From a virus (taxonomy: Duplodnaviria; Caudoviricetes): a DNA stretch of 36,350 nt. The translations under genes and the position numbers were made by a program. Shown piece after piece: positions 1,847 through 33,901 of the stretch. Below the pieces are notes generated by a model. It saw only the letters and a list, made by a program, of their open reading frames with translations, was not told the origin of the DNA and did no database searches. Location: IMG/VR virus record IMGVR_UViG_3300032155_000031, positions 1 through 36,350 of that record; one strand, written 5' to 3'. The first letter of the stretch is position 1. Every line of letters begins with the position of its first letter.

Positions 1847-2518
1847 CTATCTCAGTTCTCTTCCCACCCAGATCACGTGTCCGATGATCCTAACGCCGTC
1901 GCTCAGGTCGCCCCTGGCGTCGACTTCAATCGGCGGGTAGGCTGGGTTGTAGCTCTTTAGCAGCAACTTCCCCGGCAGCGTGTCTATCATCTTAAGATAG
2001 ACGAGATCCTCGACTCCCACGGCAAAGACTCGACCTGGCACGGGCTGCTTCTGGCTCTGATCGATCAAGACTACATCGCCATCTTTGATCTCCGGATCCA
2101 TGCTGTCGCCAGCGACGTGCATGAGTACCATCTTGCTCGGGTGTCCCCTGCTATTCAGGAAGTCGGATCTAAAGGCATACCTGCGCTCTACTTCCGCACT
2201 GGTCTCGAAACTTCCCGTCCCCGCCGCCAGGCGCGCCTTGACCATGGGCACATAGATCAAGTCCACATCGCAAACGGCCTCGGCGGCTGGAGCCGCAAGC
2301 GTCACGCCTGCCTTCATTTGTCCTTTGCCGGTCAGCAGCCAGTCGATGCTCACATTATAATGCTTGGAGACGGCGAGTAAAAACGCTGCCCCAGGTAGTT
2401 GGTCTCCGCGCTCGTAGTGCCCGATTGCGCTTTGACTAACTCCGAGCTTTTGCGCGGTCGCCATCTGGCTTGCTTCTCCCCGGAGCTCTCTTAGCCGTGA
2501 TCCTAACCCGGTGTCCAA
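1847..2518 (-). CDS. CI-like prophage repressor (XRE HTH + S24 peptidase)
   Basis: SQMATAQKLGVSQSAIGHYERG HTH, VAGDSMDP catalytic Ser motif, LVYLKMI Lys. TTG start after GAGGAG. Confidence 0.92.
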   Translation of the reverse strand: MDTGLGSRLRELRGEASQMATAQKLGVSQSAIGHYERGDQLPGAAFLLAVSKHYNVSIDWLLTGKGQMKAGVTLAAPAAEAVCDVDLIYVPMVKARLAAGTGSFETSAEVERRYAFRSDFLNSRGHPSKMVLMHVAGDSMDPEIKDGDVVLIDQSQKQPVPGRVFAVGVEDLVYLKMIDTLPGKLLLKSYNPAYPPIEVDARGDLSDGVRIIGHVIWVGRELR

Positions 2519-2786
2519 GTAAACTCCTCAAAGTTTGACAGAAAGTTTGACAGCGCGAGTTGCGTGCATCCTGCTGGCATTATTACAATAGTAGCCAAAT
2601 TCAGTTTTAATAAACTTTGACACTCTTTTTATGGTTGACCACTAGCCCAATTGTGCTTAAACATGGGCCTCGGACGGTTCGTGTCCATAGCTCAACTCGA
2701 ACACTAGCCGTCCGGCTTATCGGGGTCAACGTCCGACCAAGGGTCACGTTTCGACGCCGACCCTGCAAACCGATGGACGGCAAAGC
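2519..2786. promoter_or_regulatory. Divergent repressor/early-operon control region (operators, possible transposition enhancer)
   Basis: Tandem AAAGTTTGACAG x2 (2530-2553), AT-rich core, inverted AAACTTT near 2612, TTGACA/TTGACC hexamers at 2617 and 2635. Confidence 0.6.
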
Positions 2787-3209
2787 ATGCAGCAGCTCTC
2801 CCTCTTCAACGACGACAGCGCCCTGGCGGGCATGATGCCAGCGATCCGAGCGGCCATGAATAGGGCCGCCGGCGAGAGTATCGAGGGGCGCAAACTGCTC
2901 GTGGACAAGATCAACTCCATCGCTTCCGCTGCGGGTATCAGGCTCACGGCTGGAAACGCCAAGACCATCTCGAAGGATACCCTCGACAAGTGGCTGTCTC
3001 CGACTGACCGAGACCACACGCCGTCCTTGCAGGCGGTGGCCGTTTTTGTGCGAGCCACGGGCGACATCTCCCCGCTGCGGGCCTACCTGCAGGTGCTGGG
3101 CCTGGACGTGATGACCGATGATGATAGGCGCGGCCTCGACTATGGCCGCGCCTGTCTTGCTGAACGAGACGCGCGCAAGCGCAAGCGCATACTGGAGGGA
3201 GCGCTATGA
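2787..3209 (+). CDS. Early phage regulatory protein (CII-like DNA-binding protein)
   Basis: First gene of the early operon; TISKDTLDKWLSP HTH-like segment; ATGA overlap with the next gene. Confidence 0.65.
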   Translation: MQQLSLFNDDSALAGMMPAIRAAMNRAAGESIEGRKLLVDKINSIASAAGIRLTAGNAKTISKDTLDKWLSPTDRDHTPSLQAVAVFVRATGDISPLRAYLQVLGLDVMTDDDRRGLDYGRACLAERDARKRKRILEGAL

Positions 3210-3481
3210 ATGAAGATTGTAAGATGACTAGCCGCGAATGCGGCGTGGCCAGGCACCGGATGCGGTTCCGCGTGAGGGAACATCTGGACCGCAAGGGGGT
3301 TTCCCTTGCCGAGGTGGGCCGCCGCATAGGCGTGACCGCCGAAGCCGTTGGCCGAACGTTGCACGGGTACAACCACAGCCCTCGCGTGTTGAACGCCCTG
3401 CGCGAGCTGGGCGTGCCGGAGAAGTATCTTTACGACCCCAAACGCCAGATGTCCCAGGAATCCGGAGCAAAGGTGGCGTGA
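3206..3481 (+). CDS. Ner/Cro-like HTH DNA-binding protein
   Basis: SLAEVGRRIGVTAEAVGRTLHG HTH; lies immediately before the transposase, as ner does in Mu. Confidence 0.75.
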   Translation: MNEDCKMTSRECGVARHRMRFRVREHLDRKGVSLAEVGRRIGVTAEAVGRTLHGYNHSPRVLNALRELGVPEKYLYDPKRQMSQESGAKVA

Positions 3482-5553
3482 TGGCCACGCTCAAGGGGGC
3501 ATATACTTCTCTGGAACTGGCGGGGTTATTCCGCCGTCCAGTAAAGGCCATCCACAGGATGGCCCAACGTGAGTCTTGGGCGTCCCGTCCCCGCCCTGGC
3601 CGTGGCGGCGGCAGCGAATGGCTGGTGTCCTCTATGCCGGAAACGACGCGTCAGCAGATCCTGGAGCGCGTCCTGGCCGATGAGGCCCCAGTCGAGGCCC
3701 CGCCGGCAGTGTGCGCCCCGGTCCCGGCGGCGACCGCAGCCGCGCCGCAGCTCAAGGGCTGGCAGCGCGACGTGCGCGACGCCAGACTGGCCATTCTCCA
3801 CCTGGTGCAAAGCCTTGCTGAAAGCGCCGGGGGGCAGCTGGCAGCCGAGCGCCTGTTCGCGTCCAAGGCCGCCAAGGGCGAGCTGAGCCAGCAGGTCATG
3901 GACATGGTGCGAGTCGCTCACACCCGGAAGAACGACAGCCGCGCGATCTCCGCGATCACTCTGCGCGTGTGGCGCAGCACGCTGAGGCGCGAAGGGCCGG
4001 ACGCTCTCGCGCCGAAGCCCACCGCGACCGGGCGCGCAGGCTATCCGGAATGGCTCGGCTCCTTCCTGCGCATCTGGCGTCGCCCGACGAAGCCTTCAGT
4101 CTCCTCGGCCTACGAAGAAATTTCCAAGGATGCGGAGCTCCGATTGCCCTCTCTGCGCAGCGTGGAACGCGAAATTCGCCGTCTTGGCGTCGTCACTGCC
4201 AGCAGGGGCCGCATGGGGCCCCGCGAGCTGCGCAACCTGCAGGCATACGTGAAACGCACCTTCGACGACCTGGAGCCCGGCGACGTGTACAGCGCGGACG
4301 GGCACAAGGCGGACATCGAGGTGCAGCATCCGGAACACGGCCAGGCGTGCCGCCCCGAGATCATCACGGTGGTGGACATCGCCACGCGCCGCGTCGTGGG
4401 CTGGAGCGCCGAGCTGTTCGAGTCGAGCTGGCTTGTGGCCGACGCGCTGCGGCACGCGGTCGAGTTCGCGGGAACGCCCGCGATCTTCTACGTGGACAAC
4501 GGCTGCGGCTTCAAAAACGACTTTTTGACGGGGCCTGGGCTGGGCATGTGCACCCGGCTGGGCATCACGCCGCAGCATTCCATCCCCTACCGTTCCCAGG
4601 CCAGGGGCGTGATCGAGCGCCTGCAGGCGACGCTGTGGGTGCGCGCGGCCAAGCGCCTTCCCGCCTACATGGGCGCGGACATGGACAAGGAAGCCAAGCA
4701 GATCGTCTTCAAGAACAGCCGCAAGGAGCTGGCCGCAAAGGGCGTCTCCAAGTTCCTGATGCCCTGGGACCGCTTCCTGACCTGGGCGCGGGAGCAGGTG
4801 GACGCCTACAACGCCCGTCCGCATTCATCACTGCCGGTCATCAACGATCCCGAGACGGGCAAGAAGCGCCACCAGAGCCCGGACGAGCGCTGGCTCGAAC
4901 TGGTGGCGGCTGGGACCGTGGTGGTGATGCCGTCCGCCGAGGAGATCGCGGACGTGTTCCGCCCCTACGTCGTGCGGACGGCAGGGCGTTGCCTCGTGAA
5001 GCTGTTCAAGAAGACCTACTACAGCCGCGAACTGGACATCTACCACGGTCGCGACGTGCAGGTCGGGTACGACATCCACGACCCGAGCCGCGTCTGGATC
5101 CGCGATCTCGACGGTCGCCTGGTCTGCACAGCCGAGCTCGACGGCCATGCCGCGCCGTACTTCCCCAAGTCGGTCATCGAGGAGGCCAAGGAACGCCGCG
5201 CCAAGCAGCAGCTCCAGCGTCTGGAGCGCAAGGAGAGCCAGGTTCTGGCGGCGCTGGGGAACTCCCAGGCCGAACCTGCCGCCGTGGCCGAGCCCATTCC
5301 TGTCGCTCTGGAGGAAAAGCGGGAGCAGCTCGCGCGCGAGATGGAAGCGAGCCGTTTGGCCGCGGCGCAGCCCAAGCGCGACCCCAAGCAGGAGCGTTTC
5401 CTGCGGGCGCTTAGCATCGAGAAGCGTCTTGAGGAAGGGGCGGCGGTGGACGCCGAGGAGACGCGCTGGCTCGCGGGCTACCGGGAGACCTCGGAATACC
5501 GCTCACAGCGCATGATCTACCAAGATTTCGGCCTCGCGGCGTTCGGGGGATGA
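3481..5553 (+). CDS. MuA-like DDE transposase (690 aa from ATG 3481)
   Basis: N-terminal Mu HTH (RPGRGGGSEW); catalytic SADGH / YVDNG / GVIER; YNARPHSSL; Mu C-terminal domain (VGYDIHDPSRVWI). Confidence 0.95.
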   Translation: MATLKGAYTSLELAGLFRRPVKAIHRMAQRESWASRPRPGRGGGSEWLVSSMPETTRQQILERVLADEAPVEAPPAVCAPVPAATAAAPQLKGWQRDVRDARLAILHLVQSLAESAGGQLAAERLFASKAAKGELSQQVMDMVRVAHTRKNDSRAISAITLRVWRSTLRREGPDALAPKPTATGRAGYPEWLGSFLRIWRRPTKPSVSSAYEEISKDAELRLPSLRSVEREIRRLGVVTASRGRMGPRELRNLQAYVKRTFDDLEPGDVYSADGHKADIEVQHPEHGQACRPEIITVVDIATRRVVGWSAELFESSWLVADALRHAVEFAGTPAIFYVDNGCGFKNDFLTGPGLGMCTRLGITPQHSIPYRSQARGVIERLQATLWVRAAKRLPAYMGADMDKEAKQIVFKNSRKELAAKGVSKFLMPWDRFLTWAREQVDAYNARPHSSLPVINDPETGKKRHQSPDERWLELVAAGTVVVMPSAEEIADVFRPYVVRTAGRCLVKLFKKTYYSRELDIYHGRDVQVGYDIHDPSRVWIRDLDGRLVCTAELDGHAAPYFPKSVIEEAKERRAKQQLQRLERKESQVLAALGNSQAEPAAVAEPIPVALEEKREQLAREMEASRLAAAQPKRDPKQERFLRALSIEKRLEEGAAVDAEETRWLAGYRETSEYRSQRMIYQDFGLAAFGG

Positions 5554-5569
5554 ACGCCGGAGGCCATTT
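5528..5569 (+). repeat. 42-bp hairpin-forming direct repeat, copy 1 (contains the MuA stop codon)
   Basis: TCGGCCTCGCGGCGTTCGGGGGATGAACGCCGGAGGCCATTT, identical to 5997-6038. Confidence 0.95.
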
Positions 5570-5598
5570 GGGGAAGGCACAACCAAAGGAGAAGGGCG

Positions 5599-5994
5599 AT
5601 GAAAATGATTAAGAATCCGAATCCAGAGAAGATTTCAAGACGCATCGGCGGTGCTGCAAGAATGAAGGATTCCGGTGTGGTGGCCATTATGTTCGAGATA
5701 GACATAACGCCGCGCGAAGTCCACGAGACCAGCCTGGAGGCGTTTCCTTGCGGGAACGCGAGGTACTTCATTGAAGGGGCGTACACAAGCGGCAAGATAC
5801 TTGACGAAAAGCTTCTCTGCTTCCTGCCAGAGCATGGCTCAACTGGCTACTTCATGGCGCTTATTCCCATCGCGGCCATGCATAACGTCGTCGTCTCTTA
5901 CAATGAACGGCCCAGTCTCAGCCTTCTGCGGTTCTACGGTCGCATGCGTCGAAAGATGCGCAAATTCGTGAGGCACCATGAGGTGGCGGCATAA
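5599..5994 (+). CDS. Hypothetical protein, lower-GC insert between MuA and MuB
   Basis: AAGGAG RBS; ORF fills the interval between the two 42-bp repeats; atypical codon usage. Confidence 0.7.
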   Translation: MKMIKNPNPEKISRRIGGAARMKDSGVVAIMFEIDITPREVHETSLEAFPCGNARYFIEGAYTSGKILDEKLLCFLPEHGSTGYFMALIPIAAMHNVVVSYNERPSLSLLRFYGRMRRKMRKFVRHHEVAA

Positions 5995-5996
5995 AA

Positions 5997-6038
5997 TCGG
6001 CCTCGCGGCGTTCGGGGGATGAACGCCGGAGGCCATTT
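5997..6038 (+). repeat. 42-bp hairpin-forming direct repeat, copy 2
   Basis: Identical to 5528-5569. Confidence 0.95.
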
Positions 6039-6062
6039 CAGGAAACAGGCAACGGAGGAATC

Positions 6063-6806
6063 ATGACGACAGGCAACGGCAAAGTCAACGGGGGCACGAT
6101 CGCCCCCCTGCGGAACGTGGCCGCGTTCAACGAGTTGGTGGACCGGACCATCAAGCGGCCCGCGCATCTGCCCGGCATGGCGACGTTCCACGGCTTCAGC
6201 GGCTTCGGCAAGACCTGGGCGGCTATCTACGCCACGAACCGGCATGGCTGCCGCTACGTGGAGATGGGGCAGTCCTGGACGCAGCGCAAGCTGTGCAGCG
6301 CGATCCTGGCCGAGCTGGGCATGGTGGCGCGCGGCACGATCGCGGACATGGTGGACAACATCGTGGACGCCCTGGCCACGGACGAGCGACCGCTGATCAT
6401 CGACGAGGCCGATCACCTGGTCACGCGCGGCATGGTCGAGCTGGTGCGCGAGATCCACGACAAGAGCGACGTTCCGGTGGTGTTGATCGGCGAGGAGCTG
6501 CTGCCCGCGAAGCTGTCCAAGTTCGAGCGCATCCACAACCGGATGCTGGACTGGCTCCCGGCGCAGCCCGCGGACCTTTCCGACGTGCGGCACTTGGCGC
6601 AGCTCTATGCGCCCGAGGTGCTGATCGATGACGATCTGCTGCAGCGCATCGCGGACGCGGCCCAGGGCCGGATCCGGCGCATCTGCGTGAACCTGGAGCG
6701 CGTGCGTGAGCGGGCGCGGGTGCTGGGCGCGGCGCGCATCGACATGGCGCTGTGGGGCGACGAGGCGTTCTTCAGCGGGCAGCCGCCCGTCAGGAGGGCT
6801 GTTTAG
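6063..6806 (+). CDS. MuB-like AAA+ transposition ATPase
   Basis: Walker A GFSGFGKT, Walker B LIIDEAD, VVLIGEE; GGAGG RBS. Confidence 0.93.
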   Translation: MTTGNGKVNGGTIAPLRNVAAFNELVDRTIKRPAHLPGMATFHGFSGFGKTWAAIYATNRHGCRYVEMGQSWTQRKLCSAILAELGMVARGTIADMVDNIVDALATDERPLIIDEADHLVTRGMVELVREIHDKSDVPVVLIGEELLPAKLSKFERIHNRMLDWLPAQPADLSDVRHLAQLYAPEVLIDDDLLQRIADAAQGRIRRICVNLERVRERARVLGAARIDMALWGDEAFFSGQPPVRRAV

Positions 6807-6808
6807 CC

Positions 6809-7381
6809 ATGCGCAAGGCGCACAACGGACTTGAGCGGTACTGGCGCCGGATCATGGCGTTCGCCCCGGCGACGTTCACCGTGCGCGACGTCTGCGGAAG
6901 CCGGTCCGAGTTCAGGGAAGCGAGCCGCTACATGCGCCGCCTTGAGAAAGGAGGCTATGTGAGGCTCGCGGGACGGGACGGCGGAGCCAACCTTTGGGCT
7001 CTGGAGCGTCCGAGCCGCGAGGCTCCCCGGCTGGGAGACGACGGGAAGCCCGTCCTGATGGGGCAGGGCTACGCCCACATGTGGAACGCGATGCGGATGC
7101 TCAAGGGCTGGTGGCGGACGGACGAACTGGCCGGGGTGGCGAGCACTTCCGAGGTGCCTGTCCCGGCCAGCACGGCCATCTACTACGTGAAGCATCTTCG
7201 TCTGGCCGGGTACCTGGACAGCAAGAGGGATTCCGCGACCAGGCGGGCCATGTTCAAGCTGCGTCCCACGCACAACACCGGTCCGAAGGCTCCGCAGATC
7301 CTGAGGAGTCCGCGCCGGGTCTTCGACCCCAACAGGGGACGGATCCTGGACGCGAGGGAGGCCGCCGATGCGCGCGATTGA
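6809..7381 (+). CDS. Conserved transposable-phage early protein (tandem winged-helix-like)
   Basis: ATG 3 nt after the MuB stop; YVKHLRLAGYL and TGPKAPQI...VFDPN motifs typical of the gene following MuB. Confidence 0.7.
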   Translation: MRKAHNGLERYWRRIMAFAPATFTVRDVCGSRSEFREASRYMRRLEKGGYVRLAGRDGGANLWALERPSREAPRLGDDGKPVLMGQGYAHMWNAMRMLKGWWRTDELAGVASTSEVPVPASTAIYYVKHLRLAGYLDSKRDSATRRAMFKLRPTHNTGPKAPQILRSPRRVFDPNRGRILDAREAADARD

Positions 7382-7733
7382 GATCGTCCGGGAGAAGTGG
7401 GGGCAGCTGCTGCCCGATTGGCTCCAGGCGCTGGCGGAGGCGTGCGACGCCACCAGCCAGAGGAAGGTGGCCAAGCTGCTGGGCTACAGCGCCACGACCA
7501 TCAACCAAGTCATCAACAACGGCTATGGCTCCGGGCTTCGGGAGATCGAGGCCACGGTGCGGGCGAAGCTGCTTACGCAGGACGTGGAATGTCCGGTGCT
7601 GGGCACGATCAGCAGCGACCGCTGCCTGGACGAGCAGCGCCGTCCGTTCGCGGCCACCTCGGGCCTTCGGGTCCGGCTGTGGCGCACGTGCAAGGTCTGT
7701 CAACGCAACGTCTCAAAGGAGGCCGCGTCATGA
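7368..7733 (+). CDS. HTH protein with Cys-containing C-terminus
   Basis: SQRKVAKLLGYSATTINQV HTH; CPVLG...C...CKVC. Confidence 0.75.
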   Translation: MRAIEIVREKWGQLLPDWLQALAEACDATSQRKVAKLLGYSATTINQVINNGYGSGLREIEATVRAKLLTQDVECPVLGTISSDRCLDEQRRPFAATSGLRVRLWRTCKVCQRNVSKEAAS

Positions 7734-7924
7734 TCCATGGCAAGTACATGTCGGCGCTCACCGAGCTTCGCGCCCTGGCCGGAGAGGTTCCGGCCGACGT
7801 CTGGGAGCGGATCCGTCCGGTCGTCGCCCAGCTTTCCGGCCTTGAGCCCCTGGTCAAGAACCTTGAAACGGCCACGGTGATCGTGGTCGCGCCGGTGCCC
7901 GAGAAGCGCCTGGCGCTGCAGTAG
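7730..7924 (+). CDS. Hypothetical protein (MIHGKYMSALTEL...)
   Basis: AAGGAGG RBS and ATGA coupling. Confidence 0.65.
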   Translation: MIHGKYMSALTELRALAGEVPADVWERIRPVVAQLSGLEPLVKNLETATVIVVAPVPEKRLALQ

Positions 7925-7934
7925 GAGGAAAGAG

Positions 7935-8447
7935 ATGGCGAGAATCAAGCCTCAGGCGGTGGTGATCGCGGATCTGAAGGCGGCCGAGCAGGCGCTGTCG
8001 GAGATCGCGATGATCGACCGGAACATCAAGGGCATCGAGTCGAACCTCAACGAGGTGATCGACCGGGCCAAGGCGGGCGCGAAGCTCAAGACCGAGCCTC
8101 TGGGGATCCGGCGCAAGGAGCTGGAGACGGCTCTGGCGCAGTTCGCCGAGCACAACAAGGCCGAGCTGTTCCAGAAGCGCAAGAGCGTGGAGCTGGCCTT
8201 CGGCACGATCGGCTTCCGGCTGACCACGAGCATCAAGACGGCGGCGAAGACGACCTGGGCGATGATCCTTGAGAAGGTCCGCGATTACGGCTTTTCCGAG
8301 GCGATCCGCACCAAGGAGGAAGTGGACAAGGAAGTGCTGCGCGGCTGGAGCGACGAGAAGCTGGCCACCGTGGGCGCGCGCCGGGACACCAAGGACGAGT
8401 TCTACATCGAGATCAAGGCCGAGGAACTGGAGAAGGACGCGGCATAA
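7935..8447 (+). CDS. gam: Mu Gam host-nuclease inhibitor
   Basis: Coiled N-terminus, RKSVELAFGTIGFR, IRTKEEVDKE, FYIE motifs. Confidence 0.92.
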   Translation: MARIKPQAVVIADLKAAEQALSEIAMIDRNIKGIESNLNEVIDRAKAGAKLKTEPLGIRRKELETALAQFAEHNKAELFQKRKSVELAFGTIGFRLTTSIKTAAKTTWAMILEKVRDYGFSEAIRTKEEVDKEVLRGWSDEKLATVGARRDTKDEFYIEIKAEELEKDAA

Positions 8448-8785
8448 TGAGAACCCCACGCGAACGCCTGAAGGCCGCGCTGGTGGCCCTGGATGAACTC
8501 GACGCTGCGAATGGCCCGAAGCCCACCAAGTTGAAGGGTGTGCTGGAAGCGTTGCACCGCGCGTCCCAGGACATGGACGACGAGGGATGGCGGGAGCCCG
8601 GGCAGCCTCCCCGCATCCGGCGCGAGGCCCTGCAGGATGCCGAGCGGCAGGCGCTTGCGCACCGCTCCCTGGCCATCCGGATGGGCGGCCTGGTCAGGGA
8701 GATTGCGGCCTCTGGCTCGCTGCCCGAGGCCCTGAAGGACAAGGCGAATGAACTCCTCCGGCGCGTCGAGGCGCTGGAGGCATGA
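8447..8785 (+). CDS. Hypothetical protein
   Basis: TAATG coupling to gam; host-like codon bias. Confidence 0.65.
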   Translation: MRTPRERLKAALVALDELDAANGPKPTKLKGVLEALHRASQDMDDEGWREPGQPPRIRREALQDAERQALAHRSLAIRMGGLVREIAASGSLPEALKDKANELLRRVEALEA

Positions 8786-8799
8786 AAAGGAGAGAGCAG

Positions 8800-9078
8800 A
8801 TGAACAAGGTCCAGCTGATCGACGCGATCAAGAACGAGCAGCCCAACATCACCAAGTCCGACATCGAGCGCGTGTTGGACGCGTTCGTGGAAATCGTCAC
8901 CGAGAGCCTGACGCATGGCGAACGCGTGGTGCTGGTCGGCTTCGGCTCCTTCACAGTCAAGGACAAGGCAGCCCGCGAGGGACGCAACCCCAAGACCGGC
9001 GAGGTCGTCGAGATCGAAGCCCGGCGCGTGGTCAAGTTCAAGCCGGGCTCGGAGCTCGCCGAGCGCGTCAACTCTTGA
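8800..9078 (+). CDS. HU-family DNA-binding protein
   Basis: MNKVQLIDAI...LVGFGSF...AREGRNPKTGE...KFKPG signature. Confidence 0.95.
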   Translation: MNKVQLIDAIKNEQPNITKSDIERVLDAFVEIVTESLTHGERVVLVGFGSFTVKDKAAREGRNPKTGEVVEIEARRVVKFKPGSELAERVNS

Positions 9079-9140
9079 TGCGAAACCGCCCTGCGGGGCG
9101 GTCGCCGGGCGGTGGCGCGCCCGGCCTGATGAGCAGCCGA
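9079..9140 (+). ncRNA. Type II hammerhead ribozyme, copy 1; predicted cleavage after C9103
   Basis: GAAA 9082-9085; stem III ACCGCCC/GGGCGGT; GUC triplet; stem I GCCGGGC/GCCCGGC; CUGAUGA 9126-9132; short open stem II TGC/GCA. Confidence 0.88.
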
Positions 9141-9152
9141 GAGGAAAGCAAG

Positions 9153-9689
9153 ATGGAATACCAGCATTTCATTGGCGAAGGGCCGGAGGCCACTGCTCTC
9201 ATCAAGCAGGTGATGGCGGGGGTTAAGGCGTTTCAAGAGGCTGCCAGAACTCTTGAAGTCAAAACCGGTCTGAAGTTCTGGAGAACACGAGAGGGGATCG
9301 GCGGGCCCATGTTGGAGAACGGGATTGATAACGCCGAGGCTCGGAAGCGCGGGTTGAAGTTCAGATGCTTCGTCCCAGGCGAAAAGGCCTTTCATTGCTT
9401 CCTGCCTCACATGGGCACCAAAGCCGGGAGAGAGATGTCGGCAGAGATCGACAAGATCAACCGTCTCCGCTGTGACGCGAGCGACATGATCATCAAAGCC
9501 ACCGGGATGGAGATGACGGTGTACGACGGACGGGTAATTGCCCATTCCTGCGCGGGAGCCGCTGACGGCAAGATCGTGGTCAAAATCCCCATCAAAGGCA
9601 CGGATGGCGGCGATGACGCCATGCCGACACCCCCCGCTTGGTTTCGCCCTGCCAAGGAGTCCGAGGCCCTTGCCGTATTCGGGAAGTAG
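9153..9689 (+). CDS. Hypothetical protein between the two ribozymes (weak resemblance to phage Eac/DUF5420-type proteins)
   Basis: GAGGA RBS right after ribozyme 1; 178 aa; lower GC3 than neighbours; stop codon abuts ribozyme 2. Confidence 0.75.
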   Translation: MEYQHFIGEGPEATALIKQVMAGVKAFQEAARTLEVKTGLKFWRTREGIGGPMLENGIDNAEARKRGLKFRCFVPGEKAFHCFLPHMGTKAGREMSAEIDKINRLRCDASDMIIKATGMEMTVYDGRVIAHSCAGAADGKIVVKIPIKGTDGGDDAMPTPPAWFRPAKESEALAVFGK

Positions 9690-9751
9690 CGAAACCGCCC
9701 CCACGGGGGCGGTCGCCGGGTGGTGGCGCGCCCGGCCTGATGAGCAGCCGA
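9689..9751 (+). ncRNA. Type II hammerhead ribozyme, copy 2; predicted cleavage after C9714
   Basis: GAAA 9691-9694; stem III ACCGCCCC/GGGGCGGT; GUC; stem I GCCGGGT/GCCCGGC; CUGAUGA 9737-9743. Confidence 0.85.
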
Positions 9752-9760
9752 TGGAGAACC

Positions 9761-9988
9761 ATGATGCGCATCCTCTTCACCATCAGCATCTTTGTGTGGC
9801 TATGGGCTGCCTGGATGGCTGGAAGGGCATATCAGGCGCGCACGGATCTGCACGCCGTCCAGGAGAAGGTCGAGGAACACCAGCGTGCCATGGACCGCGA
9901 ACTGGAACGCATGTCAACGGCCCTGCTGCAGGTGGACCGGAATGCGGACGAGTGCGTGGCCCTGATGGAGGAGGTTCTGCGGCGATGA
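9761..9988 (+). CDS. Small membrane-anchored coiled-coil protein
   Basis: GGAG RBS; hydrophobic N-terminus ILFTISIFVWLWAAWMA. Confidence 0.65.
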   Translation: MMRILFTISIFVWLWAAWMAGRAYQARTDLHAVQEKVEEHQRAMDRELERMSTALLQVDRNADECVALMEEVLRR

Positions 9989-10260
9989 GCTCTATGCAGA
10001 CCAAGGCCCGCTCGGCCTGCGAGACGTGCCGACACAATTCCAACGACTTCCTCTATCCCGGCTGCCAGAACTACGTCTTCAGGGCTGGCCGGGAGGTTCA
10101 AGTCTGCCGCTACGTGCCCCAGGACGCCTCCGTGATCGTTCCCTGCGCCGACGGCTACACCTGCCCGAAGCGGGAGCGCTGCGTCCACTGGCTGGGAGGC
10201 GGCATCGGCGAGGCTTTCTTCAGGGTCTATGGCCCAGAATGCCCCAAGGAGGTGTGCTGA
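9985..10260 (+). CDS. Cys-rich hypothetical protein
   Basis: GGAGG RBS; ATGA coupling; CETC and CPKRERC motifs. Confidence 0.6.
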   Translation: MSSMQTKARSACETCRHNSNDFLYPGCQNYVFRAGREVQVCRYVPQDASVIVPCADGYTCPKRERCVHWLGGGIGEAFFRVYGPECPKEVC

Positions 10261-10631
10261 TGAACACGAGACAGATCCTGGCCACGGTGATGGCGGACCG
10301 CTTCGCGCAGGGCGCCCGGTGCATCGGTGTAGACATGCTGCGCTGCCTGCTCAACAGCCGTCTGCCGGATGGACGCTGGCTGACGCCGGAGGAGTTCCGG
10401 GAGCTGCTCGACGCCGTCGGCGCGAAGACGCTCCGAAACCGTGGGCTGACGGTCGAGCTGACCCCGGCCTTCGTGGCCTCCCTGCAGCTTGGAGCGGACG
10501 AGGACGGCTCGCTGCGGCAAAAGGCGGGTGAGAGCGGCTCCCGCATGGACGCCCTGGTGCGGCCTATGGAGTGCCCCTGGGCCACGGGCAAGATCACGGT
10601 CGAGTCTCCCTGGGAGCGTTACGTCATGTAG
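10260..10631 (+). CDS. Hypothetical protein
   Basis: AAGGAGG RBS; TGATG coupling. Confidence 0.6.
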   Translation: MNTRQILATVMADRFAQGARCIGVDMLRCLLNSRLPDGRWLTPEEFRELLDAVGAKTLRNRGLTVELTPAFVASLQLGADEDGSLRQKAGESGSRMDALVRPMECPWATGKITVESPWERYVM

Positions 10632-10675
10632 GTGGGGTGTACACCGAGTGTACACCTCCCCGGAGAACGGTTGAA

Positions 10676-12082
10676 ATGAACACCGCACCAGCCTGTCACC
10701 GCACCCCTGCGCCACGCTGCGCCAGCTCTCTGGCTGAGCTTGCGTCTGCTCCCGTGTCCGGCCTCCCGCCGCATGACCGGGAGGCGGAGCAGGCGGTGCT
10801 GGGCGGCGTGCTGCTTTCCAACAAGACCCTTTCGCTTCTGGCCTCGGTCGTGCGCGATGAGGATTTCTTCTTCCCGGCGCACCGCATGATCTGGCAGGCA
10901 ATGCTGGGGCTCTTCGAGGCTTCGCAGCCCGTGGATCTGCTGACCGTGGCGGACACCCTGGCGCGAGCCGAGACGCTGGAAGCGGCAGGAGGCCGGGCCT
11001 ACCTGGGCGAGTTGGCCGCGGCAATCGTCCCGTCGGCCAACGCAGAGTATTTCGCCGGGCGCGTCAGGGAGTTGGCCGGGCTGCGCCAGCTCATGGGCAC
11101 CGGTGTGCACATGGTGCGCGAATCCCAGGCTCCTGGCGCTGAACTTTCCGATCTGCTGGACCGGACGGGCGCTGCTCTGCTGCGCATCGAGTCGCGGCGT
11201 CAGGACACGGCGATCTTCGAGTCCGGCTCCCTGGTCACGGAAACCTTGAATCGCCTCGCCGACCTCGCCGGAAAGACCGGCGACGTCACCGGCGTGACGA
11301 CCGGCTACAGCCGTCTGAACGAGTACACGGCTGGCTGGCAGCGTTCGGACCTCATCATCCTGGCGGCGCGCCCTTCCATGGGCAAGACGGCGTTGGCGCT
11401 CAACTTCGTGCGTAACGCAACCCTTTCGGGCACGGCGGCCGCAGTCTTCTCGCTGGAGATGAGCAAGGAACAGTTGATGGCCCGCCTGCTCTGTATGGAC
11501 GGCGAGATCGACCTGCAGAGGTTCAGACGCGGCTGGTTGCACGACGACGAATGGAGCCGCCTGCGCGCCGCCGGAGCGAGACTTTCCGCCCTTCCGCTCT
11601 TCATCAACGACACCCCGGCGCTGAACGTCATGGAGATGCGCGGCATGTGCCGCAGGCTTGCCAGGGAGCGCGGCCTTGGCCTGGTCGTGGTGGATTACCT
11701 GCAGCTGATGCGCGCGGCCAGGCGCGTGGACAACCGGGAACAGGAGATCGCGGAGATCTCTCGCAGCCTGAAGGCCCTGGCCAAGGAGCTGAACATCCCG
11801 GTGATCGCGCTGTCCCAGCTCAACCGCAAGGTCGAGGAACGCTCGAACCGTCGGCCCATGCTGTCCGACCTCAGGGAAAGCGGCAGTCTGGAGCAGGATG
11901 CCGACGTGATCGCGTTCATCTACCGGGATGAGGTGTACAACAAGGAGTCTCCCAAGAAGGGGACTGCGGAGATCATCATCGGCAAGCAGCGCAACGGGCC
12001 GATCGGGGAAATCGAGTTGCGTTTCGAGGGGCCTTCGGGGAGATTCCTGGAGCTCTACGAACCCATACCCGAGAGGACATGA
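10676..12082 (+). CDS. dnaB: Replicative DNA helicase DnaB (phage-borne)
   Basis: PPHDREAEQAVLG, AARPSMGKT, FSLEM, VVDYLQLM, LSQLNR, SDLRESGSLEQDAD, KQRNGP motifs. Start codon uncertain. Confidence 0.95.
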   Translation: MNTAPACHRTPAPRCASSLAELASAPVSGLPPHDREAEQAVLGGVLLSNKTLSLLASVVRDEDFFFPAHRMIWQAMLGLFEASQPVDLLTVADTLARAETLEAAGGRAYLGELAAAIVPSANAEYFAGRVRELAGLRQLMGTGVHMVRESQAPGAELSDLLDRTGAALLRIESRRQDTAIFESGSLVTETLNRLADLAGKTGDVTGVTTGYSRLNEYTAGWQRSDLIILAARPSMGKTALALNFVRNATLSGTAAAVFSLEMSKEQLMARLLCMDGEIDLQRFRRGWLHDDEWSRLRAAGARLSALPLFINDTPALNVMEMRGMCRRLARERGLGLVVVDYLQLMRAARRVDNREQEIAEISRSLKALAKELNIPVIALSQLNRKVEERSNRRPMLSDLRESGSLEQDADVIAFIYRDEVYNKESPKKGTAEIIIGKQRNGPIGEIELRFEGPSGRFLELYEPIPERT

Positions 12083-12561
12083 CCATGCTGCGCCGCATTC
12101 TGCCCCTTCTTCTGCTGCTCGTTTCCGTCTCCGCCTCTGCGGAGACCATCACCGGCACCGTGATCCGCGTCTCGGACGGCGACACCCTGGTCATCAGGTC
12201 CGGGGCCGAGAACATCAAGGTCCGGCTCTACGGCGTGGATGCGCCGGAGAAGAAACAAGATTTCGGCAACAAGGCCAAGGACGCCCTGACTTCCATGACG
12301 GCCCTTCAGACCGTCCAGGCCGAGGTCATGGACAAAGACAGGTACGGCCGCACCGTGGCCATTGTCACCGTCGGCGATGCCGAGCCCGTGAATCAATCCC
12401 TGCTCAGGCTGGGCCTGGCGTGGGTCTATGACGCGTACTGCAAGAGCACGATCTGCGCCGACTGGCGCAAGGTCGAACGGACCGCCAGAGAGGCCAGGGC
12501 CGGGCTGTGGAGCGATCCAGCTCCCACGCCCCCCTGGGAATACCGCAGGAGGAAGCATTGA
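12079..12561 (+). CDS. Thermonuclease (SNase) family protein with signal peptide
   Basis: VSDGDT, VRLYGVDAPE, DRYGR, GLW...PWEYR; hydrophobic leader ending in ASA. Confidence 0.92.
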   Translation: MTMLRRILPLLLLLVSVSASAETITGTVIRVSDGDTLVIRSGAENIKVRLYGVDAPEKKQDFGNKAKDALTSMTALQTVQAEVMDKDRYGRTVAIVTVGDAEPVNQSLLRLGLAWVYDAYCKSTICADWRKVERTAREARAGLWSDPAPTPPWEYRRRKH

Positions 12562-13010
12562 TGGCGACAGCCAACCGCAATGCCTTGCTGGCCAAGGTGC
12601 ACATCGCCAAGACGCAGCTTGGGCTGGCCGATGAGGACTACAGGGACATGCTGGAGGAGCTGACCGGACAGCGTTCGGCCTCGAAGCTGCGCCCTGCTCA
12701 GCTCCTTTTCGTGCTGCAGCACTTCGAGGAGCGCGGCTGGCAGTCCAAGCCCAAGAAGAAGTCCGCTGCGGACACGCACGGCAAGCCCTCCGGGGCCCGG
12801 CCCGGGAGCAAAGGCATGATGGCCAAGATCGAGGCGCTGCTAGCTGAGAAGGCGCGGGTTGAGGGCCTTGGCTACCTGCCCTGGGATTACGCCAAGGCCA
12901 TTCTGCAGCGCCAGGGCGGGCCGGACAGGTTCGAGTGGGCCGAGGACGAGCAGCTGCGCGGCGTGATCGCGGCGCTGTACGCGGACGGGAAGCGCCGGGG
13001 GTGGTTATGA
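12561..13010 (+). CDS. gemA: GemA / Mu gp16 (DUF1018) family protein
   Basis: LAKVHIAKTQLGLADEDYRDML...TGQRSASKL and KIEALL motifs. Confidence 0.88.
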   Translation: MATANRNALLAKVHIAKTQLGLADEDYRDMLEELTGQRSASKLRPAQLLFVLQHFEERGWQSKPKKKSAADTHGKPSGARPGSKGMMAKIEALLAEKARVEGLGYLPWDYAKAILQRQGGPDRFEWAEDEQLRGVIAALYADGKRRGWL

Positions 13011-13423
13011 ACCTTACCCAGGCGTGCCTTGAAGAACTTCCCGGCTCGCTGCGCGAGCTGGCCCCGCTGATCGGCCTGAGGGGCTGCACCAAGCTCGCCG
13101 AGGTGTACGGCGGGATCGGCAAGCTCTACATCCCGGCGCAGATGCCGCCGGATCATCCTTTGTCGTCTCTGCTGGGCTGGGAAACGGCCCGCAAGCTCGC
13201 CGAGGTGTATGGGGGGGACTACATCCTTTCGATCCCGCGGTGCGTGGATGCCCTGCGCCGGGCGCGCGACCGCGAGATAGTGCGCATGCGCTCTCAGGGC
13301 ATGACGCCTCCGGCGCTGGCCAGGGGTTTCGCCCTCACCGAGCGCCAGATCTGGATCATCCTGGCCCGGGCCAAGGGGGAGGCGCACCGTCGCCAGCCCC
13401 AGGCTCGCCTGCCGGGGCTGTAA
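13007..13423 (+). CDS. Mor/C-family late transcription activator
   Basis: YGG..LYIP repeats, RDREIVRM, LARGFALTERQIWIIL HTH. Confidence 0.88.
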   Translation: MNLTQACLEELPGSLRELAPLIGLRGCTKLAEVYGGIGKLYIPAQMPPDHPLSSLLGWETARKLAEVYGGDYILSIPRCVDALRRARDREIVRMRSQGMTPPALARGFALTERQIWIILARAKGEAHRRQPQARLPGL

Positions 13424-13542
13424 CCCTCCACCATACCCGCCTTTGGGCCCGGCCGGTCGCTGGAAAAGGCCCGAATTTCCTTCTTTCTCCGCCGCCCGGC
13501 GGCTGCCCCGCCTCGCTATCCTCCGGCGCAGGAGGATGAAAA

Positions 13543-13746
13543 ATGAAGTTGCATGAAGAAAGCGACCATCCGTTCGATGTCGCGTCGCGAATCGCGGATG
13601 TTGCGCACCTGCTTTCCGATTACTGTGCCCAGGTAGATGAGCAAAACAGCAGGGCAACTGCGGGTATGTCCGTTGTATTGTTGGCAGTAGCGGACAGTGC
13701 CGATTACGTCAGAAGGTCCATTGACCAAAAATACGATCTCCCGTAA
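13543..13746 (+). CDS. Small low-GC hypothetical protein (moron-like)
   Basis: AGGAGG RBS; 67 aa; sits between mor and the lysis genes. Confidence 0.6.
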   Translation: MKLHEESDHPFDVASRIADVAHLLSDYCAQVDEQNSRATAGMSVVLLAVADSADYVRRSIDQKYDLP

Positions 13747-13776
13747 TGAAGCGATACTCCCCCTATACCCGTTTCA

Positions 13777-13822
13777 CCTGATCCACTTCAGGCTCAAGGC
13801 CAGTCTAACATTCATGTAGTCC
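13777..13822 (+). promoter_or_regulatory. Putative Mor/C-activated late promoter (lysis/packaging operon)
   Basis: Dyad CCTGA-N6-TCAGG followed by CTCAAGG and GTAG at the same spacing as in 20972-21017. Confidence 0.65.
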
Positions 13823-13906
13823 ACCGACCAGAGAGGCGCGGTAGCGCCGATGGTTGCTTTCCTTCCTCCCCGGTCGCTTCGGCGACCGGGGCAACAAGGA
13901 GAAGAC

Positions 13907-14374
13907 GTGGACGAACGAATTTCCCCCCATTTCCAGCTGTCGGAGTTCCTGCGCAGTGAGTCCGCAGCCCGGCATGGCATCGACATGACGCCGAACGCGG
14001 CCGCCCGCTTGAACCTCAAGCGGCTTTGCGAGCTCGTCCTGGAGCCGCTGCGCGCGGCCCTGGGGCCGGTGCACATCACCTCGGGCTACCGCCCGGAACA
14101 GCTCAATGAGCTGATCGGCGGCGCGCGCGGATCGGCGCATCTTGACGGCCGCGCCGCGGACATCGTGGTCACGGGCAAGAGCCCGGCCGAGGTGGCCGCA
14201 TGGCTGGCCGCGAGCGGCCTGCCTTTTGACCAGGTCATTCTGGAATTCGGTCGCTGGACCCATGTCGCCGTGCCCGTGGGCGGCGAGGCGCACAGGCGCC
14301 AGGCGCTCACGGCCGTGCACCGCGCGGGCCGGACCATCTACCTTTCGGGCCTCCAGGCCGGGGAGGTCGCGTGA
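13907..14374 (+). CDS. Endolysin, peptidase M15 family
   Basis: SPHFQLSEF, ITSGYR, SAHLDGRAAD, FDQVILE, WTHV; GTG start after AAGGAG. Confidence 0.9.
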   Translation: MDERISPHFQLSEFLRSESAARHGIDMTPNAAARLNLKRLCELVLEPLRAALGPVHITSGYRPEQLNELIGGARGSAHLDGRAADIVVTGKSPAEVAAWLAASGLPFDQVILEFGRWTHVAVPVGGEAHRRQALTAVHRAGRTIYLSGLQAGEVA

Positions 14375-15015
14375 GCTGGCTGTCGCGCAACTGGAGCAAG
14401 CTGGCCAAGGGCGTGCTCTCCGTGATCCCGGGCGGCGGGGTGATCGCGACCGGGCTCGACCTGGCCGAGAGCGTCGCGGACGCCATCGGAGGAGAGGCCG
14501 GAAGCAAGATCGCCGAAGGGGCCAAGATTCTTCAGGAGGGCCTCGAATCAGCCAACTCCCAGTCCCTGCCGCCCGAGGTGCAGGAGCGCATCCAGGAGGC
14601 CGCCATGCAGCACCAGGAGCGCATGGCGGAGCTCGGCATCGAGTCCCAGCGCATCGAGCTTGAGGACACCCAGGGCGGGCGCGATCTGGCCAAGACCGAG
14701 ATCGAGAGCGAGGACGAGTACGTCCGCCGCACCCGCCCCATGCTGCTTCGCGTCTTCGGCATCGGCTCTCTCGTGCTGGTGGCGGCCATCGTGGCCGTCG
14801 GCACGGCGGCGGCCTTCCTGGCCGACCTCTCACAGACGCAGGCGTCGTTCCTGATCGAAGTCTACCAGTGGGCGCTGACCGGCATTCTGGGCGCCTTCTT
14901 CATGATGTTCCGGGCCTATGTCGGGGCCAGGTCAAACGAAAAGATCGCGGAGTCCACCGGATCCATGCCCCTGACGTTCATGGACCGGCTGCTGCAGCTC
15001 AAAGGGAAGAAGTGA
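14371..15015 (+). CDS. Putative holin (3TM/GTA-holin-like)
   Basis: Follows the endolysin; VRRTRP motif followed by two hydrophobic helices and YVGARSNEK. Confidence 0.7.
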   Translation: MSWLSRNWSKLAKGVLSVIPGGGVIATGLDLAESVADAIGGEAGSKIAEGAKILQEGLESANSQSLPPEVQERIQEAAMQHQERMAELGIESQRIELEDTQGGRDLAKTEIESEDEYVRRTRPMLLRVFGIGSLVLVAAIVAVGTAAAFLADLSQTQASFLIEVYQWALTGILGAFFMMFRAYVGARSNEKIAESTGSMPLTFMDRLLQLKGKK

Positions 15016-15239
15016 TGGACGTGATCGACGATGCGCAGGCCGCCGAGGCGGCCATCCGGGCGGAGCAGCTGAGGCTCGCCCGCAGACGCCAAACGAAGGG
15101 CCCGGCTCCGGATATGGTGGACGGGGTTCCGCACTGCGCGGACTGCGGCTGCCCGATCCCGCCGGCGCGGCTTGAGGCCGTGCCCGGAGCGGGTCTGTGC
15201 ACGGCCTGCCAGGCCATGAGGGAGGGCAGCCATGCTTGA
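15015..15239 (+). CDS. TraR/DksA C4 zinc-finger protein
   Basis: MDVIDDAQ; CADCGCPIPPARLEAVPGAGLCTACQ. Confidence 0.9.
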   Translation: MDVIDDAQAAEAAIRAEQLRLARRRQTKGPAPDMVDGVPHCADCGCPIPPARLEAVPGAGLCTACQAMREGSHA

Positions 15240-15588
15240 AACCATCCAAAAGTGGCTCCCGCTCGTGGTGCTGGTCATCCAGCTGCTGCTGTCCTGGTTC
15301 ATGTGGACGCTCTCGCGCCAGTTCATGCCGCGCAAGGAGTGCGAGCAGTGCCGTGAGGACATGAAGAGGAAGGTGGACGTGCTGGAGAAGGGCGCCGCCG
15401 TGGCGGACGCCCTGCGTTCCGGAACGCCGACGGTCGAGGAGATCGGCGAGATCCACACCTCGGTCGAGGCGATCCGTGGCGACATCAAGGGGCTGCGGGC
15501 CGACATCAACGGCCAGGGTGAGCTGCTTCGCCGCCTGGAGCGTCCCGTCAACCTGCTCATGGAACACCATCTGAAGGACGGCCGCTGA
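15232..15588 (+). CDS. DUF2730-like membrane/coiled-coil protein (Mu gp25-like)
   Basis: N-terminal TM; coiled coil; LLMEHHL end; syntenic position. Confidence 0.7.
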   Translation: MLETIQKWLPLVVLVIQLLLSWFMWTLSRQFMPRKECEQCREDMKRKVDVLEKGAAVADALRSGTPTVEEIGEIHTSVEAIRGDIKGLRADINGQGELLRRLERPVNLLMEHHLKDGR

Positions 15589-15890
15589 TGAACTTCGCCG
15601 AACTGCTCTCCCAGGACCGCCGTCTGGCGATCCTGCGCTTTCTTTCCGAAGCCCCGGGCTACGAGCTCAACCTCTTCGTGCTCAAGTCCGCGTTGGACGC
15701 GACGGGACACAACGTCTCCAGCGACACGCTCGGCGGCGATGCCGCATGGCTGGCCGAACAGGGCCTGGCGACGCATGAGACGCTGGCCGGCGGCACGATC
15801 ACCGTGCTCGGCCTCACCCCGCGCGGTCACGACGTGGCCGCTGGCAGGGCCCGCCATCCTGGCGTGAAGCGTCCCGAGCCGGGGGTCTGA
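15588..15890 (+). CDS. Mu gp26-like winged-helix protein
   Basis: DRRLAILRFL, WLAEQGL, LTPRGHDVAAGRA..PGVKRP. Confidence 0.8.
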   Translation: MNFAELLSQDRRLAILRFLSEAPGYELNLFVLKSALDATGHNVSSDTLGGDAAWLAEQGLATHETLAGGTITVLGLTPRGHDVAAGRARHPGVKRPEPGV

Positions 15891-15892
15891 TC

Positions 15893-16447
15893 ATGCCCAA
15901 GGTGTCCACCATCAAGCGCCTGCCGCCCGAGGTCCGGGAGTTGATCAACGGCCTGTTCGACCGCGGTCGGACTCTCGACGAAATCCTGGCGGCCCTGCGT
16001 GAACTCGACGTCGTGGACGTGAGCCGATCCTCGCTGCATCGCTACAAGCAGCGCATGGACAAGATCACCGAGCGGATCCGGCGCACCCAGGCGCTGGCCG
16101 AGGCGGCGGTGCGCACTCTGGGTACCGTCCCGGAGTCCAAGACAGCCCGGGCCAACATCGAGGTCATGCACTCCATCCTCATGGAGATGATGGAGAGCAT
16201 CGACCCGAGCGGCGAGGACGCCGACAAGGCGGCCATCGACCCCATGCAGGGGATGCTGTTGGCCAAGGCGCTGGACCATCTCGCCAAGGCGGCCAGGAAC
16301 GACGCTGAGCTGACCATCAAGATCCGCGAGCAGGTCCGCAAGGAACTGGAGGCCGAGCAGCGGCAGAAGATCGACGAGGCCGTTGAGACCGGCGGCCTGG
16401 ATCCGGCGGCGGCGGAAGAGGCTAGGCGCATTCTCGGGTTCGCATAG
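15893..16447 (+). CDS. Putative small terminase (Mu gp27 / DUF3486)
   Basis: STIKRLPPEVR, VSRSSLHRY; directly upstream of terL. Confidence 0.82.
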   Translation: MPKVSTIKRLPPEVRELINGLFDRGRTLDEILAALRELDVVDVSRSSLHRYKQRMDKITERIRRTQALAEAAVRTLGTVPESKTARANIEVMHSILMEMMESIDPSGEDADKAAIDPMQGMLLAKALDHLAKAARNDAELTIKIREQVRKELEAEQRQKIDEAVETGGLDPAAAEEARRILGFA

Positions 16448-16455
16448 GGGGCCTC

Positions 16456-17853
16456 GTGAGCGAGGGACTGAATCAGCTCATCAGCTTTTATGACTACCAG
16501 CGTGCCTGGCTGGAAGACCAGTCGCGCTTCAAGCTGGGGATGTTCGCCCGCCAGACGGGCAAGACGTACACCACGAGCGGCGAGATCGTTGACGACTGCA
16601 TCCAGGCCGAGATCGCCGGCCGCCGCACCAGGTGGGTGATCCTCTCCCGCGGCGAGCGCCAGGCGTCCGAGGCCATGGAAGAGGCGGTCAAGCCTTTCAC
16701 CAAGGCGTTCTTCGTCCTGTACAACGCGCTGCTCAAGGGAAAGCAGCCCGAGTTCCGCGAGGAGACCTTCAGGGGCGAGTCTGGGGCCGAGTACAAGGCC
16801 CTGGAGGTGCGCTTCCCGTCCGGCTCCCGCATCACCGCCCTGCCCGCGAACCCCGACACGGCGCGAGGCTACAGCGCCAACGTCTTCCTGGACGAGTTCG
16901 CGTTCCACAAGGACTCGCGGGCGATCTGGAAAGCTCTCTTCCCCGTCATTTCCAAAACCGGCCTCAAGCTGCGCGTGACCTCGACGCCGAACGGCATGGG
17001 CAACAAGTTCCATGAGCTGTGGACGGCCAAGGACAGCATCTGGAGCCGACACCGCGTGGACATTTACGACGCCGTGAGGGGCGGACTGGACCGTGACATC
17101 GAGGCGCTGCGCGCAGGCGTCGCGGACGAGGACGCCTGGCGGCAGGAATACGAGCTGGAGTTCCTGGACGAAGCGTCGGCCTGGCTCCCCTACGACCTCA
17201 TCACCGCCTGCGAGCATGGCGATGCTGGCGTGCCCGGGCTCTATCAGGGCGGAGACTGCTTCGTGGGCAACGACATCGCCCGCCGCCGCGACCTTTGGGT
17301 CGCCTGGGTCTGGGAGCTGGTGGGCGACGTGCTTTGGACACGCGAGATCGTGGAGCTCAAGGGGGCGACGTTCGCTCGCCAGGATGCGGAACTGGACCGG
17401 ATCATGCGCGCCTACAAGGTGGTGCGAGTGGCCATGGACCAGACGGGCATGGGCGAGAAGCCGGTTGAGGATGCCCAGAACCGCTACGGTCGTCACCGCG
17501 TGGAGGGTGTGCTGCTTTCAGGGGCCAGGCCGCTGACGGTGGCCACCTGCGCCCGGCAGGCGTTCGAGGACCGCAAGGTTCGTCTCCCCGAGGGGAATCC
17601 CGTCCTGCGGGCAGACCTGCACAAGATCCGGAAGGTCGTGGGTGCCACCGGCGCGCCGAGGCTGCTCGCCGACCGAGACGGCGAGGGCCACGCGGACCGG
17701 GCCTGGGCTGGCTTCCTTGGCATCGCTGCAGCCGACAGGGCCGCACCGCCGTCTGCCGGCGCGTCCGTGGCGCGTGGCGAGAATCTCATCAGGCCTGGGC
17801 GGCCCTCTCTGCGCGAGATGGTGGGCCGGGCCGTTTCCATCTTCAATCGCTAG
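16456..17853 (+). CDS. Terminase large subunit (Mu gp28-like)
   Basis: ARQTGKT Walker A, VFLDEFAF Walker B, STPNG, VGNDIAR, MDQTGMG, GHADRAWA. Confidence 0.95.
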   Translation: MSEGLNQLISFYDYQRAWLEDQSRFKLGMFARQTGKTYTTSGEIVDDCIQAEIAGRRTRWVILSRGERQASEAMEEAVKPFTKAFFVLYNALLKGKQPEFREETFRGESGAEYKALEVRFPSGSRITALPANPDTARGYSANVFLDEFAFHKDSRAIWKALFPVISKTGLKLRVTSTPNGMGNKFHELWTAKDSIWSRHRVDIYDAVRGGLDRDIEALRAGVADEDAWRQEYELEFLDEASAWLPYDLITACEHGDAGVPGLYQGGDCFVGNDIARRRDLWVAWVWELVGDVLWTREIVELKGATFARQDAELDRIMRAYKVVRVAMDQTGMGEKPVEDAQNRYGRHRVEGVLLSGARPLTVATCARQAFEDRKVRLPEGNPVLRADLHKIRKVVGATGAPRLLADRDGEGHADRAWAGFLGIAAADRAAPPSAGASVARGENLIRPGRPSLREMVGRAVSIFNR

Positions 17854-17861
17854 GAGGCCGC

Positions 17862-20717: not shown

Positions 20718-20723
20718 GACTTC

Positions 20724-21309
<586 letters not shown>

Positions 21310-21310
21310 C

Positions 21311-23587: not shown

Positions 23588-23597
23588 GGAGCGCGCG

Positions 23598-25511: not shown

Positions 25512-25514
25512 GCG

Positions 25515-27017: not shown

Positions 27018-27038
27018 GCGCGAGGAAGGAGAAACATC

Positions 27039-32844: not shown

Positions 32845-32846
32845 AG

Positions 32847-33899: not shown

Positions 33900-33901
33900 C
33901 C

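Follow-up and report, generated by a model that had tools for sequence, protein, structure and literature searches.

Tandem type II hammerhead motifs around an early DUF5420 gene of a Mu-like phage

We confirmed that two genuine type II hammerhead motifs (RF02276) flank one early gene, of the DUF5420 family, in a Mu-like transposable phage. In the reading that we favor, both ribozymes probably cut the early transcript, which would turn the enclosed gene, hereafter the cargo, into a linear single-gene mRNA, and the pair probably arose by gene gain at a variable slot marked by the ribozyme. The analysis covered the 36,350-nt sequence of this Caudoviricetes virus (IMG/VR record IMGVR_UViG_3300032155_000031, positions 1-36,350), referred to here as the window.

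Two hammerhead motifs around a DUF5420 gene

PHROG comparisons identified a repressor gene on the minus strand, as well as MuA, MuB, Gam, HU, DnaB, Mor, lysis, head, and contractile tail genes. See Table 1 for the coordinates of the features discussed. The order of interest is HU, hammerhead 1, cargo, hammerhead 2, and an ORF of 75 aa. The HU gene is the upstream anchor, and its TGA adjoins hammerhead 1. The 75-aa ORF showed no PHROG match, no Pfam match above the cut-off, and no tblastn match among 289 loci. A weak consensus scan of the + strand from 2400 to 14000 revealed no promoter-like sites, and no terminator-like sites at either repeat, which fits a single early transcript at the hammerhead unit. 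The Mu-like early region also holds genes for a full DnaB-like helicase and for a nuclease (10571-12561). Near the left end, at 1219-1368, there are three short repeats, each ending GCTTTTATCAC, which are possibly transposase-binding sites.

Table 1. Features of the window and the evidence used to assign them
Feature	Position	Strand	Basis
Mu-like transposable phage	1847..36350	+	PHROG comparison of two window ORF sets (28 and 19)
48-nt hairpin repeat, copy 1	5528..5575	+	repeat search; fold z -3.0
Second repeat-bounded cargo gene, 131 aa, GC 0.53	5599..5994	+	repeat-flanked ORF
48-nt hairpin repeat, copy 2	5997..6044	+	just before MuB; fold z -3.8
HU-like DNA-binding protein gene, 92 aa	8800..9078	+	phrog_379, E 2e-32
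Type II hammerhead 1	9079..9140	+	RF02276, 67 bits; descriptor
Predicted released RNA, 611 nt	9104..9714	+	inferred from two predicted cut sites
Cargo gene, 178 aa, DUF5420 / phrog_2260	9153..9689	+	PF17457, phrog_2260
Type II hammerhead 2	9689..9751	+	RF02276, 60.6 bits; descriptor
75-aa ORF downstream of hammerhead 2	9761..9988	+	no family

A preliminary description of this DNA had pointed to two near-identical elements with a full hammerhead core and had suggested an Infernal search with Rfam models. In that search (cmscan), both elements exceeded the RF02276 (Hammerhead_II) gathering score of 37. Hammerhead 1 matched at 9078-9142 with 67.0 bits (E 5e-12) and hammerhead 2 at 9687-9753 with 60.6 bits (E 3e-10); among the three Rfam matches in the window at E<=1, only these two passed a gathering score. 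The hammerhead 1 core consists of GAAA at 9082-9085, a GUC ending at 9103, and CUGAUGA at 9126-9132, with the predicted cut after C9103. Its stem II is formed by 9079-9081 and 9133-9135, stem III by 9086-9101, and stem I by 9104-9125. Hammerhead 2 has GAAA at 9691, a GUC ending at 9714 (predicted cut after C9714), and CUGAUGA at 9737. The core (CUGANGA, GAAA, NUH) is thus intact in both copies, and stem I, like stem III, is closed with stem II open, as had been described: stems III, I, and II measure 6, 8, and 3 bp in hammerhead 1 and 7, 8, and 2 bp in hammerhead 2. CUGANGA is absent from the minus strand between 8800 and 10000.

As a repeat in the DNA, copy 1 spans 9080-9140 and copy 2 coincides with hammerhead 2. 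The two are 89% identical, which ranks the pair at 3.7% among 273 cores. All of the structure-preserving differences described earlier are present, namely an extra pair in stem III, a different loop, and a C-G to U-G change that is the single difference in the 22 nt of stem I. Only four other stem I sequences among 231 lie within two differences of the window copies. Each element begins at an upstream stop codon and ends before an RBS, again in line with the first description. The stops adjoin stem II in both cases (TGA at 9076-9078 for HU and TAG at 9687-9689 for the cargo), and the G of the cargo TAG sits in the 5' strand of stem II of hammerhead 2.

The proposed pseudoknot between loop I (UGGC) and the 3' tail (GCCG) can form 4 bp in both copies; in hammerhead 1, tail 9136-9139 would pair with loop 9113-9116. 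Covariation across the hammerhead family supports this predicted pairing. Among 231 unique 22-nt stem I hairpins, 195 pair at four of four positions with their own tail, compared with 173.5 on average and no more than 185 over 2000 shuffles that leave kinship among the sequences uncorrected. Furthermore, of 21 non-consensus loops, 12 can pair with the tail of their own element and none can do so with the consensus one, with kinship likewise uncorrected. In a pseudoknot-free model, the probability of stem I depends on context, ranging from 0.12 to 0.99 for hammerhead 1 and from 0.02 to 0.81 for hammerhead 2.

The cargo protein matches PF17457 with 27.4 bits against a cut-off of 26. Its structure model has a pLDDT of 96 and is similar only to uncharacterised phage proteins, and a comparison with the PDB gave no matches at E<=0.001. 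Two possible folds were rejected: qRRM, for which the best VIA-align Z score of 5.2 (rmsd 2.5 over 67 residues) is within background, and MutS-like, with a TM of 0.42 or less. An open frame at 8748-9689 spans hammerhead 1 in the reading frame of the cargo. We read this frame as chance and rejected an HU-cargo fusion, as none of the 72 representatives of the cargo relatives is HU-fusion-like; their lengths are 80-237, except for one 627-aa match over 30 residues. The lower GC3 reported for the cargo holds, at 0.72 compared with 0.78-0.94 in 15 other early genes scored, a set that leaves out two further low-GC genes. A third low-GC gene, at 13543-13746 (GC 0.51, GC3 0.57), lies in the mor-endolysin interval, has no family, and has no flanking repeat among the 20 largest repeats listed.

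We then compared DUF5420 loci. A single-protein search of viral contigs confirmed none of three candidates, and a 59-sequence alignment was too diverse, while a 10-sequence alignment gave seven loci, which together with phage SuMu make eight. None of the eight has two hammerheads, and two (L283 and L288) have one, just downstream of the gene. In L283, L285, and L288, HU is followed directly by DUF5420, without an upstream hammerhead. Therefore, the DUF5420 gene needs no two-ended excision, and the window arrangement could also have come from a ribozyme added before a resident gene. After the DUF5420 gene of L285, a sub-threshold hammerhead match (15.9 bits) at 3035-3120 keeps the 3' half of the motif (CUGAUGAGCAGCC) and has no GAAA, which suggests a decayed or variant hammerhead. 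The 5' hairpin of this element resembles hairpins that follow DUF5420 in L284 and L286.

Predicted processing of the early transcript

Cutting of the early RNA after C9103 and C9714 would release the 611-nt RNA of Table 1, and this span contains the RBS and the entire cargo ORF, as the preliminary description had it. The type II layout would keep a hairpin on both cleavage products, so that the released RNA would start with a 5'-OH and the stem I hairpin and end with the stem III hairpin and a 2',3'-cyclic phosphate. These hairpins would uncouple its stability and translation from those of its neighbours, as RiboJ-type insulators do. Stabilisation of an RNA by a 5'-OH hairpin depends on host RNases. 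In RiboJ-type synthetic insulators, self-cutting takes away the RNA upstream and leaves a 5' leader that is fixed (PMC12857756); these are engineered, whereas we infer a natural insulating role in the window phage.

The flanking-hammerhead layout in prophages has been known since 2011, and the window locus is no new class. Perreault et al. 2011 (PMC3088659) reported that multiple hammerheads in prophages often enclose one gene or a short block of genes, and that these genes vary. All three of the arrangements tested cleaved in vitro, and one of them, cloned in E. coli, also cleaved in vivo (PMC3088659). The window unit shares with these clusters the type II architecture, the pseudoknot, the 2-3 bp stem II, and a single variable gene between same-sense prophage copies, and processing was proposed and circles considered there as they are here (PMC3088659). 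Its same-sense copies flank one gene and its cargo is not constant, which is what defines clustered prophage hammerheads, but the phage and the cargo, DUF5420, are different. We did not find empty and filled DNA alleles or stop-codon abutment described in that paper or elsewhere in print, although supplements of the cited papers could bear on this. Likewise, a literature search that was thin on subscription journals found no paper on a DNA-cassette role of phage hammerheads or on large arrays.

In Desulfovibrio vulgaris, three type II hammerheads cleave in vivo according to cyPhyRNA-seq (Olzog et al. 2021, PMC8782182). Two of them, loc 2 and loc 3, form a same-sense pair near phage-like genes, as in the window, and cleave in vivo; unlike the window copies, they are only 313 nt apart and are not from this phage (PMC8782182). 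A 2019 review calls the role of bacterial hammerheads unresolved, and that of phage hammerheads is still open (PMC6765202).

The position of the motifs bears on how cutting might be controlled. We surveyed the hammerhead family by pattern scans, which gave 27 viral, at least 126 metagenome, and at least 125 genome stretches, the metagenome and genome scans being biased to the search pattern. Applied to 281 loci and the window, the descriptor recognised 281 unique hammerheads, and 37 loci gave no match. GAAA lies 1-11 nt after an upstream stop in 226 of the 263 with enough flank, compared with 8% at random positions. The distance from stop to stem II has a median of 1 nt (133 of 252 within 1 nt), and that from tail to start codon a median of 12 nt. 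Because the upstream stop abuts stem II or, as in hammerhead 2, forms part of it, a terminating ribosome, given the size of its footprint, would overlap the core. Cleavage could then be a translation-coupled switch, in which a ribosome that terminates at the upstream stop would sit on stem II and GAAA and prevent cutting, so that cutting would occur mainly when the upstream gene is untranslated. We consider this very unlikely. Phage intergenic regions are compact anyway, the 3' side has to hold the RBS, and the null for the stop distances consists of random positions, not other intergenic elements. Furthermore, the D. vulgaris hammerheads were active in both conditions tested (PMC8782182).

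Three readings of the unit had been offered initially, and they fared differently. Processing of the early operon fits the published tests, and a mobile gene cassette finds support at the DNA level in relatives, whereas a protein-coding circular RNA is not supported. Retrozymes, with which the unit had been compared, are eukaryotic, non-coding, LTR-like, multi-copy elements with proven circles. The window unit resembles them in that its two same-sense hammerheads could set a monomer free, but it is a single-copy coding unit in a phage operon, and we judge the comparison not apt. A conserved multi-copy unit of the retrozyme kind was not found: no DUF5420 homolog locus of the eight has both ribozymes, and the window holds one unit.

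It is highly improbable that the 611-nt piece is ligated, retrozyme-like, into a stable, functional protein-coding circle. The 5'-OH and cyclic phosphate would make its ends ligatable, and the circular fold has a z of -2.4 against 60 shuffles. The stem I that would re-form on circularisation is predicted to be sequestered, with a pair probability of 0.0 and a cost of 5.1 kcal/mol to enforce it, which could protect a circle from re-cleavage. However, the fold z drops to -1.1 for the cargo without the ribozyme hairpins, and the highly self-paired monomer expected of viroid-like RNA was not seen, the fold being branched and its paired fraction 0.65 compared with 0.63 in shuffles. It also argues against a circle that none of the eight DUF5420 homolog loci has two hammerheads and that two have one, downstream, and the 47 ORFs scanned from the window gave no match to a ligase or reverse transcriptase family. 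Perreault et al. looked for products that were spliced or circular and detected none (PMC3088659). A host ligase might make a circle at a low level.

Probable gene gain and loss at hammerhead slots

A neighbour hammerhead lies within 1.5 kb of 44 of the 129 family members that have at least 1.5 kb on both sides. Among 41 pairs, which leave out 19 pairs from one large array, 26 bracket one gene, with cargo from 16 clusters. HU is directly upstream of the hammerhead at 52 of 281 unique sites, and 33 different gene clusters follow downstream. Twins are therefore common and their cargo varies, and the pair likely marks a slot where genes come and go. One cluster, holding DUF2786/DUF7168, is the sole cargo between twins in six loci (L048, L072, L077, L170, L176, and L191) that differ in flanking genes.

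Related phages support the idea of a ribozyme-bounded cassette at the DNA level. In L072, two identical hammerheads enclose a gene of the DUF2786/DUF7168 cluster. L223 (from a Desulfomicrobium MAG) and L107, whose flanks are 91-93% identical to it on both sides, carry a single hammerhead and are shorter by exactly 751 nt, corresponding to the ribozyme plus gene. L048 and L176 show the same ribozyme-plus-gene indel relative to L094, at 83-87% identity. Breakpoints were clean in 4 of 18 pairwise comparisons, which do not fix the polarity of the indels (gain or loss); in 13 others the flanks were diverged or not shared, and in one counter-example, L099 compared with L048, a gene was added behind the hammerhead without a second copy.

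The comparison with relatives suggested in the preliminary description thus turned up empty sites and differing cargo in related phages, but no empty site for the window hammerhead cargo. A ~95% identical relative from run X1 also carries DUF5420 (9138-9685, 29 differences in 548), on a contig that ends at both repeat edges. Five MuB relatives (45-50% identity) gave no Rfam match, and their distance is too great for an empty site to be recognised.

In the reading we prefer, a gene would be gained together with another copy of the ribozyme already at the site, in the way described for the PeSL repeats of T4-like phages. In the DNA this 60-nt motif is a direct repeat, and homologous recombination between its copies could delete the ribozyme-plus-gene unit. 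In 20 of 41 pairs the twin is within the top 5% by identity (273 cores), and in the other 21 it is not unusually similar. Among the single-gene pairs for which both neighbours were scored (n=20), the GC3 deficit of the cargo correlates with how identical the twins are (rho -0.54, p 0.014), more similar twins going with more alien cargo, in a small sample of partly related loci; without three related loci, rho is -0.55 (n=17). This small, not fully independent sample suggests gain with duplication, followed by drift.

In PeSL cassettes, short intergenic repeats flank accessory genes (Arbiol et al. 2010, PMC2839356). They show filled and single-copy empty alleles and recombination between copies (PMC2839356), to which we liken the proposed hammerhead slots. 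Such alleles are seen in relatives and at a second repeat of the window, between MuA and MuB, and no empty one was found for the hammerhead cargo of the window. PeSLs are promoter-terminator units (PMC2839356), whereas the window repeats are a ribozyme or a plain hairpin; promoter-plus-terminator sites were not found at the window repeats in the weak consensus scan.

The MuA/MuB repeat consists of 48-nt hairpin copies that are 96% identical. It has no Rfam match and is classed as non-ribozyme. Copy 1 holds the last codons and stop of MuA, and the repeat duplicates the MuA 3' end. No homolog was found for the low-GC 131-aa gene between the copies. In an X1 contig, 5527 is followed directly by 5997, with a junction that is ambiguous over 42 letters matching both sides, and 5542-5883 is uncovered in this relative, which lacks the 131-aa gene; the exact empty site rests on one contig of depth 6. 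A non-ribozyme repeat thus behaves alike, and the repeat behaviour needs no catalysis. The 48-nt hairpin may serve MuB as a signal for RNA processing or stability.

This repeat also bears on whether bracketing is selected. It could be that a single ribozyme matters, at the tail of DUF5420 or HU, and that the twin is a by-product of local duplication or recombination. The HU-DUF5420-hammerhead order with a single ribozyme in L283 and L288 is consistent with this, as are the 85 of 129 family members without a neighbour within 1.5 kb, and the non-ribozyme repeat indicates that the window phage makes such duplications regardless of catalysis. However, every difference between the window copies keeps pairing, with core and pseudoknot kept in both, and other phages retain diverged twins whose cores are intact, with as many as 22 on a single contig. 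Overall, we regard an unselected bracket as unlikely.

The locus and its relatives provide natural paired alleles, with empty or filled slots and one or two ribozymes around the same gene family. With the non-ribozyme repeat of the same phage as an internal control, they allow both processing and gene capture to be tested directly. A wider view, which we hold tentatively and with clearly less confidence than processing with gene gain, is that hammerheads in Mu-like phages serve a gene-capture system in two ways, by cutting the RNA and by providing its landing pad in the DNA. A new gene would arrive with a copy of the resident ribozyme and would thereby at once be cut out as its own mRNA, and units would travel between phages as ribozyme-plus-gene mini-circles. 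DNA mini-circles are a feature of PeSL (PMC2839356) and a proposal only for the window unit. A route through a ligated RNA circle is much less likely, its probability being very low.

If gene capture occurs in this manner, contig VFSW01021964.1 (L085-L087, 8506 bp) would be its extreme, integron-like form. None of six ORFs tested from this contig matched a PHROG. Its 22 distinct RF02276 hammerheads all lie on the same strand; most are separated by a single small ORF, and each sits between a stop codon and an RBS. The copies are diverged, and the arrangement suggests an integron-like array punctuated by ribozymes.
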